Shown: in pieces, positions 13,632-51,330 of the stretch | How positions within the stretch are numbered: position 1 is the stretch's first letter | Layout of the letters: the number at the start of each line of letters is the position of its first letter | Source: an uncultured Actinomycetota bacterium | GTDB lineage: Bacteria > Actinomycetota > Actinomycetes > CAVWCF01 | Reading direction: 5' to 3' | DNA length: 64,000 bases | Assembly (NCBI GenBank): GCA_963753435.1 | Contig: CAVWCF010000001.1 | Span: forward strand, 608,001 to 672,000 | Notes under the pieces: generated by a model | The model's database searches: none | What the model saw: only the letters and a program-made list of their open reading frames with translations | Told to the model about the DNA's origin: nothing | Program-made: the position numbers and the translations under genes

Positions 13632-14627
13632 TCAGGCCTGGTTCTCGTCGGATGCGGCTATGCCGCTGTCGGTCGTCGGCTCAGCGGCCGCCACGGGCTC
13701 AGCCGCCGCGGGTTCGGCTGCCGCCTCGGGCGTCGCCGTCTCGGCAGCGGCCTCAGCCGGTGCCTCCGCAGGTGCCTCCGCAGGGACCTCAGCCGGTGCT
13801 TCGGCAACAGCGTCGGCAGCAGCCGCAGCAGGTGCCTCGGCGGGCTGGTCGGCGCTGGCGCCCGCAAGCAACTCCCGCTCCCACTCCGCCAGCGGCTCTT
13901 CGCCCGCAGCGGGCTTGTCATCGCCCGCGGCAGCACCGGCGCGCGCCATCAGGCCATCGGCGACGGCGTCCGCGATCACTCGGGTCAGCAGGGCGACCGA
14001 GCGGATGGCGTCGTCGTTGCCGGGAACCGGGAAGTCGACCTCGTCCGGGTCGCAGTTGGTGTCGAGGATCGCAATCACCGGGATGTTGAGTTTGCGCGCC
14101 TCGGCGACGGCGATGTGCTCCTTCTTGGTGTCCACCAGCCAGACGGCAGACGGGATTCGGTTCATGTCCCGCACACCACCAAGGGTGCGCTCCAACTTCT
14201 CCTTCTCCCGCTTCAGGACTAGGAGTTCCTTCTTCGTCATGCCGGAACCGGCGACGTCGTCGAAGTCGATGAGCTCAAGTTCCTTCAGCCGCTGCAGCCG
14301 CTTGTGAACCGTGTCGAAGTTGGTGAGCATCCCGCCGAGCCACCGCTGCGTCACGTAGGGCATGCCCACGCGAGTCGCCTGCTCGGCTACAGCTTCCTGA
14401 GCCTGCTTCTTGGTGCCCACGAACATGATCGAGCCACCGGCCGCGACCGTGTTCTTCACGTACTCGTAGGCGGAGTCGATGTACGACAACGACTGCTGCA
14501 GGTCGATGATGTAGATGCCATTGCGCTCGTTGAAGATGAAGCGCTTCATCTTGGGGTTCCACCGGCGGGTCTGGTGCCCGAAGTGGGCGCCGCTCTCAAG
14601 GAGCTGACGCATCGTGACAACGGCCAT
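13632..14627 (-). CDS. rpsB: 30S ribosomal protein S2 with long Ala/Glu/Pro tail
   Basis: [52 protein letters not shown]; true start ATG 14627. Confidence 0.97.
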
Positions 14628-14839
14628 GGCCGCAGCCTCCTTTTGCCGCTGGCGCGGCGTCGGTTCGTCGCAACGCCAGGTCGACGTCGCTGCCTGGTGT
14701 CGCGCAATTCGCCACTCTCGAGGAGAGACCGGACGAGTTGCCCCGGCTGACCGGGTAGTGCGACACGCGAATTCGGTCCATAGGACCGGATCGGATGATA
14801 CGGCACGCCCGCGCCAGGGCCGAATCCGCGCTTTGGCCG

Positions 14840-14916
14840 TCCACAGCCGCGCCAGAGCACCGGGAGCCCACAACTGCTGGGCAGTTGAACCGGCGTCCGC
14901 GGACCCCGGCGAACGT
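14840..14916 (+). promoter_or_regulatory. Tandem TCCACAG-like boxes plus -10 element upstream of the M23 gene
   Basis: TCCACAGC (14840-47), N19, CCCACAAC (14867-74), N36, GAACGT (14911-16), 6 nt, GTG 14923; same geometry as upstream of yraN. Confidence 0.55.
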
Positions 14917-14922
14917 CATCCC

Positions 14923-15516
14923 GTGCTCGGACAAGCCCTGATCACCCCCATGGCGCTGCTGGCCGCGCCAGCAATTGCCGTCGCCGTACTCACCGGCACC
15001 GGAACCGGATCCGGCCCGCGCGCGGTCAACGAACCCAGCCCAGGGCTGCCGTTCGGGTCGCCGCCGCCGGCGTGGACGCTGCCCGTCCCCGGACCGGCCC
15101 TGAGCGGCTTCGACCCGCCCCAGCGGCCGTGGCTGGCGGGGCACCGCGGCATCGACCTGGTCGCCGAACCGGGCGATCCGGTCCGGTCCGTGGCCAGTGG
15201 CGTGGTGGCATTCGCCGGGACGGTTGCCGGCCGGGGCGTGATCAGCGTGCAGCACGGACAAGTGCGCAGCACCTACGAGCCGGTCACCCCCGCAGTGGCC
15301 GTAGGCGACCACGTCGTTTCCGGGGAAAGGCTTGGGTTGGTGGCCGGTTCAGCGCACGAGGGTTGTGGATGTCTGCACCTGGGGGCGCGCCGCGGCGTGG
15401 ACTACATCGACCCGTGGACCCTGTTGCGATCGCCGAGCCGGTTGGTCAGCGTGTTGGCGCGGGAAGGCCCGCTCAGCCGTCCATCGCCTCGGTCAGTCGG
15501 GACCGCATCTGAATGA
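14923..15516 (+). CDS. M23-family peptidase-like exported protein
   Basis: Hydrophobic N-terminus, [15 protein letters not shown] (HxxxD), [26 protein letters not shown]. Start GTG 14923 or ATG 14950. Confidence 0.85.
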
Positions 15517-16477
15517 CGGCCTTGGTGTGCAGCTGGCAAACGCGGCTCTCGGTGACACCGAGGACCTGCCCGATCTCCGCCAAGGTCAGGCCCTCGTAGT
15601 AGTACAGCGTCACGACGACCTTCTCGCGTTCGGCCAGTTGCCCGATGGCCCGGGAAAGCAGGTACTTGATCTCCTCGGACTCGACGGCCCCCATGGGGTC
15701 CTCAGCACGGGAGTCCTCCAGGGTGTCCAGCAGGGAGAGCCGCTCCCCTTTGTCCGCCCCCGGATGCAGCAGTTCGTCCAGGGCCACCACGTTGACGTAG
15801 GACATCTTTGAGAAGGTCTGGTGCAGGTCCGACAGCGCGATACCGAGATGGGCGGCAACTTCGGCCTCGGTCGGGGTCCGGTGCAACTCCGACTCCAGCG
15901 CCGCGTAGGCCTTCTCGACCTCACGGGCCTTCGATCGGACCGAGCGGGGGACCCAGTCGATGCTGCGAAGTTCGTCGATGATCGCGCCGCGGATGCGGGC
16001 GATCGCGTAGGTCTCGAACTTGATGGCCCGTTCCGGCTCAAACTTCTCGATAGCGTCGATCAGCCCGAAGACGCCGTACGCGACCAGGTCCGCTTGTTCG
16101 ATGTTGGGCGGCAGACCGACACCAACGCGGCCGGCCACGTACTTCACCAGCGGTGAGAAGTGCAGAATCAACCGCTCCCGAGCCTGCTCGTCCCCGGTGC
16201 TCTTGTACGTGCTCCAGAGTTCGGCCAGCACCGCCACTGGGTCTTCGTCTAGCCAGTCCTCGGCAAAGGGGTCGGCGTCTGCGGAACTGGCTTCGGAGTC
16301 GGAGGTCGCCGCGTCGTCCGCCTCGGTGTCGTCCACCTCGGCGTCAGCCACGTCGGCATCGTCCAGATCGGCATCGTCCAGATCGGCGTCGTCCACGTCG
16401 GTGTCGTCCAGATCCACGGCGGCCTCGGCCCCTTCGGCAACGAGGGCGCCGTCAGGCCCGCGGGTGCGCCTGCTCAT
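15473..16477 (-). CDS. whiG: RNA polymerase sigma factor, FliA/WhiG family
   Basis: [85 protein letters not shown]. Start ATG 16477 or GTG 16417. Confidence 0.9.
16310..16414 (-). repeat. Coding 15-nt tandem repeat giving acidic pentapeptides in the WhiG N-terminus
   Basis: Repeated gtcgtccagatcggc-like units; [35 protein letters not shown]. Confidence 0.8.
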
Positions 16478-17417
16478 ATGTGGATCGCAGCCTTTCGACG
16501 GAAACGTGCGTGTATATCTGCGTGGTCGCGAGCGTAGCGTGGCCAAGCATCTCCTGGACGGACCGTAGGTCCGCGCCACCCTCCAGCAGGTGAGTTGCCG
16601 CGGAGTGTCGCAAGGCGTGCGGCCCAACCGGGCCGGCCACGTCTCGGGTGACTCGAGCCACTAGCGCTCGCACCACGCGGGGGTCGACCCGACCGCCGCG
16701 GGCCCCCAGGAAGAGGGCGTCCCCAGAAGTGGGATTCGCCAGTGCCTCGCGGACCACCCGATACCGCGCCACAGCGCGCAGCGCCGGCTCGCCCAGCGGG
16801 ACGGTCCGCTCCTTGCGGCCCTTGCCCAGTACCCGTACCACCCGCCGGTCGGTGTCGATGTCGCCGAGGTTGAGGCCGCACAACTCCGAGACTCGCACCG
16901 CCCCTGCGTAGAGGACCTCGAGCATGGCCGAGTCCCGAAGCCGGATCGGATCGTCTTCGGCTGCTGCTGCTGCCGAGTCCAGCACCAGCTCCGCGTCGTG
17001 CTGCCGCAGCACGGTGGGTAGGGCGCGGCCGTGCTTGGGAGTGCCCAGGGCCGCCCCCGGGTCGCTGGTGGCGTGCCCGCGGGCAGACGCAAAACTGGTC
17101 AGCGCCCGGGCGGCGGCCGCTCGTCGGGCCACGCTGGAACGCGCCGCCCCGGTAGCCGCCTGCAGCGCCAGCCAGGACCGCAGCACCCCGAGCGTGATCT
17201 CGTCCGGAGTGGAGAGGCCGTGCCGGGCCGCATGTTCCAGCAGCGAGGTCGCATCGTGGGCGTAGGCCCGGACCGTGTGCGGGCTCAGCCCACGTTCGTC
17301 CCGCAGGTGCGTGATGAACGCCAGCAGCAGCGAATCCATCGCCGCCGGTAGCGACTCCGAAGCCGGCGACGGGGACGCCACGTCGCCGGTCCGATTCGGC
17401 TCGCCCCTCCCGGTCAC
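16452..17417 (-). CDS. xerC: Tyrosine recombinase XerC
   Basis: [67 protein letters not shown]; conserved position after dprA. Confidence 0.92.
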
Positions 17418-17423
17418 CGGACA

Positions 17424-17452
17424 ACGGTCTGGCCTGAAGCGGGACGGGTCAA
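17424..17452 (-). promoter_or_regulatory. Sigma-A-type leaderless promoter of xerC
   Basis: Minus strand TTGACC (17452-47), N17, GACCGT (17429-24), 6 nt, GTG 17417. Confidence 0.6.
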
Positions 17453-17480
17453 GACTCCGCGCCGCCGGACCGTGTTCGGC

Positions 17481-18557
17481 CTACTGGCGGCGGACACTTG
17501 CCAGGCGCCACCCCGATGCCGACTCGACCACCAGTCCTGCAGCCGCCAACTCATCCAGACCGGCCAGCACGTCCGCCGTCGACGCTCCGCAAGCAGCCAC
17601 CAGTCGGTCCAAGTCGGACCCGCCCCGGCCGGGCAGGAGCGCCAGCAGATGTTGCGCCAGCAGACCGGGCGCCGCTTCGACCTGACCCAGGTCCGCAACG
17701 GCACCTATCGGCTCAACCAGTTCTCGAACCTGTGCCGCGGATGCCACCAACGTGGACCCATCGCGGATCTCCGCGTGGCAACCGGCGGACACCGCTGAGG
17801 TAATCGGGCCGGGCACGGCCATGACCGGCCGATTGAGTCGACGCGCGTCCGCCGCAGTGCGGCGTGCACCGCTGCGGGACGCCGCTTCGACCACCACGGT
17901 GCCCCGGCTCAGGGCGGCGATGATGCGGTTGCGCTGCAGCAGGCGGGAAGCCGTGGGGCGCACCCCACAAGGCAGTTCACCCACCAAAACGCCCTCGGCG
18001 GCTATCGCCCGGAAGAGTGACTCGTTGCCTCGCGGCTGCAGCAGGTCCGGGCCCGCAGCCAACACCGCAACCGACGCTCCCCCGGCGGCAAGGGCCCCGC
18101 GATGTGCGGCGGCGTCGATGCCGTAGGCCCCGCCGGACACGATCGCGAGACCGGACTGCACCAGTTCGTAGGCAAGATCTCCAGCGCACTCGGCGCCGTA
18201 CGCGGTGCACGCTCGGGCTCCGACAACCGCGACCGAGCGCAGCGCCAGCAGACGCAGGTCGCCCCCGCCGAGCGCCCAGAGCCCGAACGGCGCAGCGCCA
18301 CCCAACTGGTCCAACTGGGTTGGCCACTCCAACTCCCCCGGGATCACCCAGCGCGCGCCCACCAGGTCCAACGCCCGCGCCGCGGCCACTCCCTGCGACA
18401 CGTCAACGCTTGCGCGCGCGGGCAGATTCGGATCCCCACCGGCCATTCGGCGCACGACCGCAACTGCAGACTCCGTTGCGAGGGCCTGGCCTACCCGCGG
18501 ATCGCCGGGCTCGCAGACACCCGCAAGGACCAACCGGGCCATGGCCTCGTCGTTCAC
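17481..18557 (-). CDS. dprA: DNA-processing protein DprA
   Basis: VAVVGARACTAYG, IVSGGAYGIDAAAHRGAL, RNRIIAALS, VVVEAASRSG, VPGPITS. Confidence 0.93.
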   Translation of the reverse strand: MNDEAMARLVLAGVCEPGDPRVGQALATESAVAVVRRMAGGDPNLPARASVDVSQGVAAARALDLVGARWVIPGELEWPTQLDQLGGAAPFGLWALGGGDLRLLALRSVAVVGARACTAYGAECAGDLAYELVQSGLAIVSGGAYGIDAAAHRGALAAGGASVAVLAAGPDLLQPRGNESLFRAIAAEGVLVGELPCGVRPTASRLLQRNRIIAALSRGTVVVEAASRSGARRTAADARRLNRPVMAVPGPITSAVSAGCHAEIRDGSTLVASAAQVRELVEPIGAVADLGQVEAAPGLLAQHLLALLPGRGGSDLDRLVAACGASTADVLAGLDELAAAGLVVESASGWRLASVRRQ

Positions 18558-20068
18558 GCCGCCGCACCCACGGACCCTCGAAAGCGCAGTGCGGTCGCCA
18601 GGTCTGACGCTGCCGGGGCCGTCCGTCCGGCCAGATCCGCCAGCGTCCAGGACACCCGCAGCACCCGATCCACTCCCCGCGCGCTGAGACGACCTGCGTC
18701 CATCTCCCGGGTTACCGAGACCATCGCCGACGGGTCCGGCCGCCAGCGTGACCGCAGCGCACTACCGGGAACGTGGGCATTCACCGTCCAACGCTGGCCC
18801 CAACGTTCCTGTGCCGCCTGCCGAGCGGCCTGGACCCGGGTCGCCACGGTCGAACTGGATTCCGACGGCGTGGGCTGCTCCAGGTCCGCCGGCCGTAGGG
18901 GCCGGACCCCGACGCGCAGGTCGATTCGATCCAGCAAGGGACCGGACAGCCGGTTGGCGTATCGCCGGACCTGCATCGGCGAGCACTCACATGCCAGCGC
19001 CGACGAGCCGAACCGGCCGCATGGGCAGGGGTTAGCCGCCAGCGCCAGCTGGAACCGAGCCGGCAGCCGCACCGAACCTGCCGATCTGGAGACGATCAAC
19101 TCCCCGCTCTCCAGCGGTTGTCGCAACGAGTCCAACACCCCCGAACGGAACTCCGGGGCCTCATCCAGGAACAGCACCCCGCGATGCGCCAGCGACGCCG
19201 CCCCGGGGCGCGGTAGTCCAGAACCACCGCCGATGACCGCCGGAACGGACGCGGAATGGTGTGGGGAGACGAACGGCGGGCGGCGGATCAGCCCAGCGTC
19301 CGGAGGCAGAACGCCCAGGACGGAGTGGATAGCGGTGACCTCAAGCGCTTCTGCGACTGTCAATTCCGGCAGCACCCCGGGCAATCGGGAGACCAGCAAC
19401 GTCTTCCCCGCGCCTGGAGGGCCATGCAGATACAGATGGTGGCCGCCAGCGGCGGCGACCTCCAGCGCCAGGCGCGCCTCGGCCTGCCCGATCACTTCGC
19501 AAAGGTCGGGGACCCGCGACTCGGCTGTCGCGGTCGCACTCGCCAACTGCGGCGCCGGCGTTTCCCCGCGCAACACCGCACAAAGCTGCCTCAGGTCTGC
19601 GACTGCCAACACCGACACGTCCGGGACAAGAGCGGCCTGACCGCCGCTGGCCGCCGCGACCACGACCCGGCTGAAGCCGGCATCCCGGGCAGCCAAGACC
19701 GCCGGCACCACGCCCGGTACGGCGCGGACGCTGCCGTCCAGTCCCAGTTCGCCCAGGACTACTGCCCCCGCCAACGCGTTCTCGGGGATGCGGCGTTGCA
19801 CGAGCAGCAACCCGCAGGCCAGCGCCAGGTCGAAGCCGGAACCTCGCTTCTGCAGATCCGCGGGAGAAAGGTTGACCGTGACCCGCTGGGCCGGCCACGG
19901 CAGCCCACTGTTCAAGACTGCTGCGCGAACCCGATCGCGCGACTCCGAAACCGCTGCGTCCGGCAATCCGACCAGGCAGAACCCGGGCAAACCCTGCGAG
20001 TGGTCAACTTCTACGTCGACGATTCGGCCCGTCACCCCGACGATGGCGACCGAGCGGACCCGGGACAT
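18554..20068 (-). CDS. comM: ComM/YifB Mg-chelatase-like AAA+ helicase
   Basis: VGLPDAAVSESRDRVRAA, NLSPADLQKRGSGFDL, GPPGAGKT, SLAHRGVLFLDEAPEF, AANPCPCG, SGPLLDRID; ATG 20068 in a TGATG overlap. Confidence 0.93.
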   Translation of the reverse strand: MSRVRSVAIVGVTGRIVDVEVDHSQGLPGFCLVGLPDAAVSESRDRVRAAVLNSGLPWPAQRVTVNLSPADLQKRGSGFDLALACGLLLVQRRIPENALAGAVVLGELGLDGSVRAVPGVVPAVLAARDAGFSRVVVAAASGGQAALVPDVSVLAVADLRQLCAVLRGETPAPQLASATATAESRVPDLCEVIGQAEARLALEVAAAGGHHLYLHGPPGAGKTLLVSRLPGVLPELTVAEALEVTAIHSVLGVLPPDAGLIRRPPFVSPHHSASVPAVIGGGSGLPRPGAASLAHRGVLFLDEAPEFRSGVLDSLRQPLESGELIVSRSAGSVRLPARFQLALAANPCPCGRFGSSALACECSPMQVRRYANRLSGPLLDRIDLRVGVRPLRPADLEQPTPSESSSTVATRVQAARQAAQERWGQRWTVNAHVPGSALRSRWRPDPSAMVSVTREMDAGRLSARGVDRVLRVSWTLADLAGRTAPAASDLATALRFRGSVGAAA

Positions 20069-20430
20069 CACCAGATCACTCCGCGACGGTGGTCTATGAC
20101 GGGTTGCTTCCGCTGCGAAACCAGCACCCCGATCACGTCGAAACGAACCGGTGTGCCGGGCACACCACGTTCTCGAAGCCACAGAGCCGCCAGGCGCCGC
20201 AGCCGCCGCGCCTTGTCCGGGCCGACCGCGGCAACTGCCGGACCGAAGGCGTCGGTGCTGCGGGTCTTGACTTCGCAGACGACAACCGCGTCGCCGTCCA
20301 TCGCGACGATGTCCAGTTCCCCAGCACCGCACCGCCAGTTGCGGTCGAGAATGCGCAGGCCGCATTCGCGCAGGTGCGCGGCCGCAAGATCCTCGCCGAG
20401 CCGGCCCAGCGCGGCCCTCGACTCCGTCAT
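20068..20430 (-). CDS. yraN: YraN family nuclease (UPF0102)
   Basis: LGRLGEDLAA..L, ILDRNWRC..GELDIVA, EVKTR, RFDV. Confidence 0.93.
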   Translation of the reverse strand: MTESRAALGRLGEDLAAAHLRECGLRILDRNWRCGAGELDIVAMDGDAVVVCEVKTRSTDAFGPAVAAVGPDKARRLRRLAALWLRERGVPGTPVRFDVIGVLVSQRKQPVIDHRRGVIW

Positions 20431-20448
20431 GTGATCACCTCCGCGGCG

Positions 20449-20525
20449 AGCGTCGTCGCTGCGGAGCGATCCGACCGCGGTGCGTGACGGCCTGGGGACT
20501 GCGGGGGTGCGCGAGCGCCTGTGGA
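20449..20525 (-). promoter_or_regulatory. Tandem TCC(A/C)CAGG boxes plus -10 element upstream of yraN-comM-dprA
   Basis: Minus strand TCCACAGG (20525-18), N19, TCCCCAGG (20498-91), N36, GACGCT (20454-49), then GGAGGTGA SD and ATG 20430. Confidence 0.6.
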
Positions 20526-20533
20526 AGCGACGC

Positions 20534-20848
20534 CTACCCGGAGTCGGCGGGCAGTTCCATGTCGGCCTTGGCCATCTCCTCGACGTTTACGTCGCGGAAG
20601 GTAAGCACCTTGACGTTCTTGACGAACCGAGCGGGTCGATACATGTCCCAAACCCAGGCGTCGGACATGGTCACCTCGAAGTACACCTCGCCGGCGTCGG
20701 TTCGTACCTGCAGATCGACCGAGTTCGTCAGGTAGAAGCGTCGCTCCGTCTCCACGACATAGGTGAATAGACCCACCACATCGCGGTACTCGCGGTACAG
20801 GGTCAGTTCCATCTCGGACTCGTACCGTTCGAGGTCCTCGGTACTCAT
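20534..20848 (-). CDS. DUF2469 family conserved actinobacterial protein
   Basis: MSTEDLERYESEMELTLYREYRDVV..F.YVVETERRFYL, DAWVWDMYRPARFVKNV; ATGA overlap with rnhB. Confidence 0.88.
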   Translation of the reverse strand: MSTEDLERYESEMELTLYREYRDVVGLFTYVVETERRFYLTNSVDLQVRTDAGEVYFEVTMSDAWVWDMYRPARFVKNVKVLTFRDVNVEEMAKADMELPADSG

Positions 20849-21552
20849 CTCGCCTCCGTCACGGCCGCACGGGACGGTTCGATCGGGCCGTCCACCCCTA
20901 GCCGCCAGGACTGCCGATGCTGCGGTGACGGCCCCAGGCGTCGCAGCGCTTCTCGATGAGCTGGGGTGGCATAGCCCATGTTCTCCGTCCAGCCGTACTC
21001 CGGGTGCGTACCGGCCAGTTCGCACATCAACGCGTCCCGCGTGGTCTTGGCCAGAACGCTCGCCGCCGCCACCGTCGCGCAAGTCTGGTCCCCCTTGACC
21101 ACCGTATGCACAGCCGGCGTGGTGCTCAGCCAGTCACTCCCGAAGAGGTCCAGTTCGTCGGGTTGGGTCACGTAGTCATAGTTTCCGTCCAGCACGACGA
21201 TGTCGACCGGAACCGGCAATGCCCGCAGGGCTCGGTGCGCCGCCAGCCGAAGCGCGGCGATGATCCCCATCTGGTCGATCTCCGCCGGGCTGGCGTGGGC
21301 AACCGCTGTGGCCGGGGACCAGTCCCGGATCCGCGGCACCAGCCGGCGGCGCTGCTGGGCCGGTAGCAGTTTGCTGTCGCGCAGCCCGCGCGGCGGTCGC
21401 AGCCCAGGAGGCGGCAGCACCACCGCACCGATCGTGACCGGCCCGCAAAGCGCCCCGCGCCCGACCTCGTCGAGCCCCACGACGAACCGATACCCGGCAT
21501 CGCGAAGGCCGTTCTCAACGCGGAGCCGCGGAACCGGACCGGGTGGGCTCAT
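20845..21552 (-). CDS. rnhB: Ribonuclease HII
   Basis: GLDEVGRGALCGPV, LRDSKLL, VKGD, AAASVLAK..RD, GY.T..H, HRQSW. Confidence 0.93.
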   Translation of the reverse strand: MSPPGPVPRLRVENGLRDAGYRFVVGLDEVGRGALCGPVTIGAVVLPPPGLRPPRGLRDSKLLPAQQRRRLVPRIRDWSPATAVAHASPAEIDQMGIIAALRLAAHRALRALPVPVDIVVLDGNYDYVTQPDELDLFGSDWLSTTPAVHTVVKGDQTCATVAAASVLAKTTRDALMCELAGTHPEYGWTENMGYATPAHREALRRLGPSPQHRQSWRLGVDGPIEPSRAAVTEAR

Positions 21553-50651: not shown

Positions 50652-50712
50652 GAGTTTCATCTTGCCGCAGTCCGGTCGCACGCGCTGTTGACTCCGCTGA
50701 CAGGATCGGAAT

Positions 50713-51330
50713 GTGGATCCGGTTTCGATCGTCGTCCCGGTGAAGCGCTTCCGGCACGCGAAATCCCGCCTGATCGAGCAACCCCACCGGGCCGAGTTCG
50801 CGATGGCCCTGGCCCAGGACACTGTGGCGGCGGCGCTCGCAGCCGAGTCGGTGGTCGTCGTCGTGGTCACTGACGAGCCCGAAGCACGGCGGCGACTGGC
50901 CGAAATGGGCGCAGTCGTGGTGCCGGATGTTCCAGACGCCGGCCTCAACCCCGCCCTCGCCCACGGCGCCGCCCAGGTCGACTCCGGGAGTTGGGTGGGT
51001 GCGCTGTCCAGCGACCTGCCTGCGCTGCGAACCATCGAGTTGACCGAGGCGCTGCAGCGGGCGCAGGCAACTGCCACTCGCGGCTATGTCCCAGACAGGT
51101 CCGGCATCGGCACCACCCTGCTGCTGGCACCGCCAGGAATGGACCTGGCCCCGGACTTCGGGGTCGGTTCAGCCCGCCGGCACGCGCATTCCGGCGCAGT
51201 TGCCGTTGGTGCGGATCTACCGTCACTTCGCACCGACGTCGACACCTGGGCGGACATGGAGGTTGCGGCGGAGTTGGGACTCGGCCCCCATACGCGACAG
51301 GTCCTCAACCAGTGGCGCAGGCGCGGCTAA
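50713..51330 (+). CDS. cofC: F420 biosynthesis guanylyltransferase CofC/FbiD
   Basis: VVPVK...AKSRL, GLNPAL, DLPAL, GTTLL, FG.GSA..H, LRTDVDT..D. Confidence 0.9.
   Translation: MDPVSIVVPVKRFRHAKSRLIEQPHRAEFAMALAQDTVAAALAAESVVVVVVTDEPEARRRLAEMGAVVVPDVPDAGLNPALAHGAAQVDSGSWVGALSSDLPALRTIELTEALQRAQATATRGYVPDRSGIGTTLLLAPPGMDLAPDFGVGSARRHAHSGAVAVGADLPSLRTDVDTWADMEVAAELGLGPHTRQVLNQWRRRG

Follow-up and report, generated by a model that had tools for sequence, protein, structure and literature searches.

The yraN and M23 promoters of the window

The window analysed here is a stretch of 64,000 nucleotides from the genome of an uncultured actinomycete (G000; 2.17 Mb, 68% GC, 98% complete), and its subject is a tandem-box promoter module found at two genes of a natural transformation locus. 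G000 was assigned through its relatives in the class, the named loci of which include Knoellia, Nocardioides, Actinomadura, Streptomyces and Amycolatopsis. On the minus strand the gene order is DUF2469, yraN, comM, dprA, a xerC-like gene and a WhiG/FliA sigma factor gene; on the plus strand lies a gene for an M23-family protein, divergent from rpsB (Table 1). Protein identities are Pfam and NCBIfam profile matches, those of ComF and ComEA falling below the curated cut-offs. The Flp-type pilin has no NCBIfam match and was called from a G/XXXXEY site as defined in PMC4322843. YraN and ComM have been reported to act jointly on the transformation D-loop (PMC13663708).

Each module consists of an upstream partner box, an anchored box and a predicted weak -10 hexamer. 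The initial annotation had described one such module before yraN-comM-dprA and another before the M23 gene, with equal spacers and no good -35 element at canonical spacing. Both were recovered to the base in sequence and position. The period between the boxes is 27 bp and the distance from box to hexamer 44 bp at each promoter, and a sigma-70 consensus scan of window positions 14500-21000 returned 0 canonical promoters. All four boxes are relaxed, with no perfect DnaA 9-mer among them (0/4). The agreement in spacing also exceeds chance: using the earlier degenerate box, (27, 44) was the best-filled of 1394 spacer combinations, with 3 sites genome-wide, the third of which precedes DUF4192. The two modules do face inward and bracket the transformation locus, but this layout looks incidental. 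The boxes were rejected as promoter elements of the divergent rpsB, for which their orientation is backwards; the anchored box occurred in 0/50 rpsB upstream regions. The one RNA run used (X1; share 0.07, contigs only) covered neither window promoter.

Table 1. Coordinates, strand and basis of the promoter elements and genes of the locus
Feature	Window position	Strand	Basis or remark
M23 promoter, partner (upstream) box, DnaA-box type	14837..14846 (core 14840-14846)	+	profile like oriC boxes
M23 promoter, anchored box, weak variant	14864..14873 (core 14867-14873)	+	starts 44 nt before -10; kept at orthologues
M23 promoter, predicted weak -10 hexamer	14911..14916	+	position conserved across orthologues
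M23-family protein	14923..15516	+	PF01551; likely leaderless GTG start
xerC-like recombinase	16452..17417	-	TIGR02224 below cut-off, PF00589; start uncertain
dprA	17481..18557	-	TIGR00732, PF02481
comM (YifB-family AAA+ helicase)	18554..20068	-	TIGR00368 above cut-off
yraN nuclease	20068..20430	-	PF02021, NF009154
yraN promoter, predicted weak -10 hexamer	20449..20454	-	6 nt before GGAGG ribosome site (20442-20437)
yraN promoter, anchored box, TCCCCAG variant, common at oriC too	20492..20501 (core 20498-20492)	-	sequence match
yraN promoter, partner (upstream) box	20519..20528 (core 20525-20519)	-	sequence match

From the alignment of orthologues, which start at the same place, the M23 gene most likely begins leaderless at its GTG, 6 nt past the hexamer. 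The HxxxD element of the zinc site is kept in 48/48 orthologues, and CxH stands in place of HxH in 41 of the 48 matched; the window protein likewise retains HxxxD and has CxH. Since CxH mostly replaces HxH, hydrolase activity is uncertain. The xerC-like gene, overlapping the end of dprA, is possibly co-transcribed with it. Directly after xerC comes the WhiG/FliA-type sigma gene (window 15473-16627, minus strand), which has an acidic N-terminal extension and whose end overlaps that of the M23 gene. It was set aside as a candidate, being present in just 18/80 loci (partly a limit of locus length).

A promoter module shared by competence genes

Nine promoters of G000 share the module, that is, a box, a period of 26-27 bp, a second box, 44-45 bp and a weak -10. 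The genes concerned are yraN-comM-dprA, M23, comEA-comEC, ssd-tadA, the Flp pilin gene, comF, recA-recX, a second ssb (ssb2) and DUF4192. A blind search of the genome for TCCACAG pairs (at most 1 mismatch) found 5 at period 27, 1 at period 26 and 0-4 at other periods, with yraN, comEA, ssd, ssb2 and DUF4192 as downstream open reading frames (ORFs) and one site within an opposite-strand gene. G000 was also scanned with a model of box and -10 trained exclusively on genomes other than G000, the period window of 26-28 being taken from G000. Eleven sites scored >20, nine at the genes named above and 2 probably background; among the nine, the period is 27 in 8 and the -10 lies at 44-45 in all. Eight sites scored >22 compared with 0-2 in seven wrong geometries, a contrast that weakens at >18 (12 against 1-9). 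The second Tad locus (tadA-tadB-tadC) is preceded by one anchored box. A weak box pair at window 50691-50720 (minus strand), at the edge of the score range and before a lysophospholipid acyltransferase gene, is probably background, and a match at C1 1186559 was treated as such.

The same gene families carry the module across the class. Upstream of yraN in 26 relatives, two boxes were found in 20, one in 4 and none in 1, the remaining locus being truncated. In 61 genomes of the class, exact TCCACAG-N18..24-TCCACAG pairs numbered 179 against 24 for the reversed pattern and were present in 46 genomes. A pair with a -10 was found in 142 of the 201 genomes sampled, comEC in 197. Among 80 named loci the pair occurs at yraN (38/76) and M23 (19/48) and is missing from rnhB (0/68), rpsB (0/50) and whiG (0/18). 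The anchored box is present in 60/76 yraN loci; in the controls it was found once in 196 (DUF2469 0/80, rnhB 1/66, the remainder being rpsB). Two unpublished genomes (G008 and G038) enter some of the class-wide tallies, G038 supplying 1/7 M23 loci, and no claim is made on them alone. The conservation at orthologous yraN and M23 promoters that the initial annotation had asked for is therefore present, and is specific to them relative to neighbouring genes. Its expectation of the motif before comEA/comEC, comF, pilus and ssb genes agrees with the G000 scan, in which recA carries the module as well. Taken together, these data point almost certainly to a real, class-wide promoter element of competence genes, and so to the uncharacterised competence regulon that had been proposed.

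Ninety loci with exact pairs were cut out and their downstream ORFs chosen mechanically; after 3 duplicates and 1 locus with masked bases were dropped, 86 ORFs were scanned. Of these, 42 encode M23, RecA, DUF4192, YraN/ComM, SSB, ComEA, ComF, Ssd-like proteins, DUF4244 pilin or RadC; the rest comprise 8 DUF559/AbiEi/Uma2 proteins, 9 others (including WXG100 and alpha/beta hydrolase) and 27 unassigned. The nuclease-like DUF559, AbiEi and Uma2 genes bear the same module in several genomes of the class (L039, L048, L086, L093, L099, L109, L114, L116), which suggests that enzymes that restrict or repair DNA are regulated together with uptake. G124 has the module before further genes too, read from their sequences as rpsF-ssb, cell-wall genes and gyrB. 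At L290 and L295 (G124 and G020) a gyrB-like gene has a box pair of period 32 and a strong -10 at 43 nt, which ties the geometry of the module to a replication gene.

A closer inspection of DUF4192 was made by structure modelling. The model (pLDDT, the predicted local distance difference test, 89) has an N-terminal domain followed by a helical part resembling tetratricopeptide repeats. The best solved-structure match of the N-terminal domain is RadC (template modelling score 0.60-0.68 by target, E 0.013, none at 0.001); a comparison with the RadC sequence profile gave E 0.79. A single-sequence fold of the protein was poor, and a structure-atlas search returned its own family only. A RadC-like fold of DUF4192 is thus a lead rather than a proof.

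Three further arrangements were seen. At C1 ~914000-916200 of G000 (L245), SAF-domain and CpaE-like genes diverge from an HTH_17 gene, and most orthologous intergenic regions hold 1-2 of the same boxes, often inverted. At C1 1028069 (minus strand; L298) a perfect DnaA box lies at the anchor distance with a strong -10 and a palindrome, which we take to be SOS-like, over the start of a leaderless DUF222/HNH-like gene split between two frames. The recA promoters of G066 and G071 likewise combine boxes with an SOS-like palindrome. In Micrococcus luteus, mutations in a SAF/CpaE-like–HTH_17 arrangement alter comEA expression and transformation (PMC8467076).

Fixed anchor distance and variable partner spacing

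The fixed two-box geometry proposed initially holds within a genome, but its partner spacing does not hold across the class. There, the constant element is a single box that precedes an xAxxxT hexamer by 43-47 nt. The distance from box to -10 peaks at 44-47 in 70/89 loci, with leaderless ATGs at 57-58, and in five small low-GC genomes the box lies 56-58 nt before the comEA ATG. The first base of the -10 is C or G in 92/95 yraN and M23 promoters. In family f41, the RpoA of which is presumably of mycobacterial type, the distance from box to -10 at comEA is 56-57 nt in 6/6 genomes, and the same holds at DUF4192 in 3/6; other promoters of this family appear to keep 44-46 nt. This moves the box upstream by one helical turn, which fits an activator confined to one face of the DNA. 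The layout is consistent with class I activation, with a site upstream of the -35 region, helical phasing (43-47, or 56-57 nt in f41) and a weak core promoter. No peak at 43-47 nt was found for dnaN across 29 origins.

Partner-box spacing is typical of each genome and ranges from 14 to 34 bp between genomes. A class-wide fixed spacing of 27 bp was rejected, since modal periods ran from 20 to 31 in 13 genomes chosen as motif-rich, and 14-21 at several comEA promoters. The modes include 26 (7/9), 28 (9/18), 29 (10/13; 11/17; 9/19), 30 (6/8), 31 (7/12) and 20 (12/23), and the distribution is broader in two large genomes. In G020, period 26 accounts for 9/23 pairs with a wide search window, and for 9/9 only inside a 25-31 window. 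In 15/17 genomes the periods of yraN and M23 differ by at most 1 bp (range 17-40; shuffled mean 5.4), and their exact equality is not significant (5/12, permutation p 0.13). The matching spacers of the window thus follow from partner spacing being genome-typical. G130 has 15 sites with period-26 pairs, one of them 1.6 kb upstream of comEC, whose similar spacers hold a short inverted repeat; because of this likeness and the repeat, the spacer may bind a partner, or a promoter cassette may have been copied.

DnaA as the candidate reader

The initial annotation had offered two readers of the boxes, an unknown activator or DnaA, and the evidence favours the latter over an unrelated activator. Promoter and oriC boxes share a YYR-TCC(A/C)CAG-S profile. 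In 178 promoter boxes the flanking frequencies are C 0.44/T 0.44 at -3, C 0.53/T 0.34 at -2 and G 0.65/A 0.20 at -1; in 70 exact cores from oriC they are C 0.30/T 0.34, C 0.33/T 0.49 and G 0.49/A 0.31. The G000 origin, between dnaA and dnaN at C1 ~1.4195 Mb, holds 11 relaxed boxes, including the CCCACAG and TCCCCAG variants of the window. The window sites are not themselves origins, having two boxes each instead of a many-box cluster beside dnaA. Lone yraN boxes are perfect DnaA 9-mers in 15/20 cases compared with 7/40 for paired boxes; the corresponding M23 contrast is not significant (5/10 vs 8/25), and lone cases come in clusters of kin. G000 has a single DnaA DNA-binding domain (one PF08299 match at E <= 1), and the recognition segment of DnaA is nearly invariant in 30 genomes. 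Given the match to replication-origin boxes, it is on balance probable that DnaA reads the regulon directly as an activator, probably with a partner.

Under this reading, DnaA would bind the anchored box (at about -54 from the predicted start, which falls near 20443 for yraN and 14923 for M23) and activate the competence regulon, recruiting RNA polymerase from that helix face to promoters without a good -35, presumably by class I activation. Occupancy of the relaxed boxes may require abundant free DnaA or a helper, as in slow growth or stalled replication, which would tie DNA uptake to the state of replication. A partner protein would probably fix how far apart the two boxes lie. The M23 protein may assist uptake at the cell wall, and DUF4192 may belong to the regulon as a RadC-like protein. 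The broadest form of this proposal is put forward tentatively, as somewhat less likely than not: DnaA would be the master activator of competence across Actinomycetia, with the partner as a species-specific ruler between boxes, uptake coupled directly to the state of replication, and the regulon, with M23 and the RadC-like DUF4192 among its members, readable from the sequence of any genome of the class. If true, this would connect the control of replication with horizontal gene transfer by a route not found in the literature searched.

Several observations weigh against control by DnaA or against the strength of the motif evidence. Related genomes are not independent, so the significance of the class-wide counts is overstated. 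In G000, the top-scoring model site lies inside an opposite-strand gene, and a scan for single boxes did not rise above background (11 vs 9-16). In G020 the second box lies on the downstream side, 18 nt ahead of the -10, and f41 has an inverted pair at yraN in 4/5 genomes. DnaA linker length was rejected as the spacing ruler (rho 0.03, n = 25, periods entered by hand), as was the linker of the RNA polymerase alpha subunit, with 34 residues in 25/25 measured; a partner is inferred because neither explains the spacing. For the mycobacterial data, we take Rv2415c to be comEA, and the Rv identities of the other competence loci are likewise our assumption. Chromatin immunoprecipitation (ChIP) of DnaA in exponentially growing Mycobacterium smegmatis gave five strong regions, none at competence genes (0/5), and nine further weak peaks that are unannotated (PMC7738170). 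Purified mycobacterial DnaA yielded a weak window (3.6-7.2-fold) 92 nt upstream of Rv2415c (PMC7738170 Table S8), and the in vitro table lacks five of the six competence loci. The single match may be noise, as the weak tail of that table looks rich in PE/PPE-type regions. In three mild dnaA point mutants under ordinary growth, the six genes were unchanged except for Rv3660c (+0.35 log2 in one mutant; PMC7738170).

Rather unlikely, though the strongest of the alternatives, is a dedicated competence activator that reads a DnaA-like box and dictates the spacing through the geometry of, for instance, a variable linker or dimer arm, with DnaA binding weak or incidental. It would account for a spacing that is tight within genomes, runs from 14 to 34 between them and is explained by neither linker, as well as for the lack of a named ChIP peak at competence genes in the available mycobacterial text (PMC7738170). 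However, G000 has no second DnaA-type DNA-binding domain, and the box copies the oriC profile down to its variants and is mostly a perfect 9-mer when alone. Moreover, both candidates for a universal reader were rejected after going undetected in motif-rich genomes: the query used found no M. luteus-type HTH_17 protein in G066, G042, G070, G039, G022 and G072, and DUF4192 was not found in G019, G020, G124, G066, G130, G053 and G061.

It is quite improbable that DnaA acts instead as a repressor or gate, with competence switched on when DnaA falls or leaves in starvation. In its favour, M. luteus becomes more competent in minimal medium, amino acids having a repressive effect (PMC6667448), in many bacteria DnaA acts as a repressor at its own promoter (PMC8203912), and the second box of G020 lies over the polymerase site. 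However, a conserved, phased box upstream of the -35 region with a weak -10 is an activator-dependent pattern, and a repressor would be expected in ChIP of rich exponential growth, where it is absent from the available data (PMC7738170). Chance matches or stray DnaA titration sites without a link to transcription are very improbable indeed: the motif is short and degenerate in a 68% GC genome and 2 of the 11 top sites look like background, but dozens of families preserve the gene set, the orientation and the placement relative to the -10, with a control rate of 1/196.

The closest parallel to activation by DnaA is in Caulobacter crescentus, where DnaA activates the gcrA, mipZ, ftsZ, hdaA and podJ promoters (PMC3193534). 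There too, relaxed xTCCACA boxes lie upstream of the core promoter, and the DnaA motifs of the DnaA-activated mipZ P2 at -52 and -83 (PMC4287350) are near the -54 and -81 predicted here. The Caulobacter targets differ in being cell-cycle and division genes with boxes of varying number and position, whereas here the set is for DNA uptake, the position is fixed class-wide and binding is predicted. ComK in Bacillus subtilis, SigX in streptococci and CRP-S with Sxy/TfoX in Haemophilus and Vibrio likewise place one cis element before comEA-EC, comF, dprA, comM, recA and ssb. The gene radC is a further member of known competence regulons. Here the element is of other sequence and its likely reader is the essential replication initiator. 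The nearest in logic is CRP-S, with a general regulator, relaxed sites and a helper (PMC8467076). Neither ComK nor its cascade was found in M. luteus (PMC4322843).

By gene content, the machine of G000 (Tad/Flp pilus, ComEA-EC, DprA-ComM-YraN) is that of M. luteus and Bifidobacterium transformation, and G000 has two Tad loci, as does M. luteus (PMC4322843). In Bifidobacterium pseudocatenulatum, 19 genes were upregulated under transformation-promoting conditions (RNA-seq; PMC13660472 Table S3), namely ssd-tadA-tadB-tadC-DUF4244-tadE, ssb2, dprA-comM-yraN, comEA-EC, WXG100, a PGAP1-like hydrolase and four others. Homologues of this set overlap the module-bearing genes of G000, but recA, comF, M23 and DUF4192 are not named in the available list. 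The DUF4244 pilin was induced far above its ssd-tad neighbours (PMC13660472), which fits the separate pilin promoter predicted here, and deletions of Tad, comEA-EC or dprA-comM-yraN abolish transformation (PMC13660472). The available text of the M. luteus and Bifidobacterium papers names no promoter motif, and the literature searched, in which few subscription papers were covered, held no description of the motif or of DnaA control of actinobacterial competence. According to a 2026 M. luteus paper, upstream competence regulators in this species and in Actinomycetota remain to be identified (PMC12849477). With box, position and candidate protein all specified, a small number of mutated promoters in M. 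luteus or Bifidobacterium would suffice to test the proposal, which also nominates M23 and DUF4192 as new transformation genes.

The mapped mycobacterial DnaA sites (oriC, dnaA, dnaB, Rv0010c-Rv0011c, Rv3843c) share the box type outside oriC. They are multi-box, high-affinity clusters, the five strong regions being seen both in vitro and in vivo (PMC7738170), whereas the promoter sites of the module have one or two boxes each. G000 too has multi-box DnaA clusters outside its origin, at C1 1328649, C1 1404676 and C5 198972. The cluster at C1 1404676 adjoins cell-division-like genes and, by synteny, may correspond to the Rv0010c-Rv0011c site.

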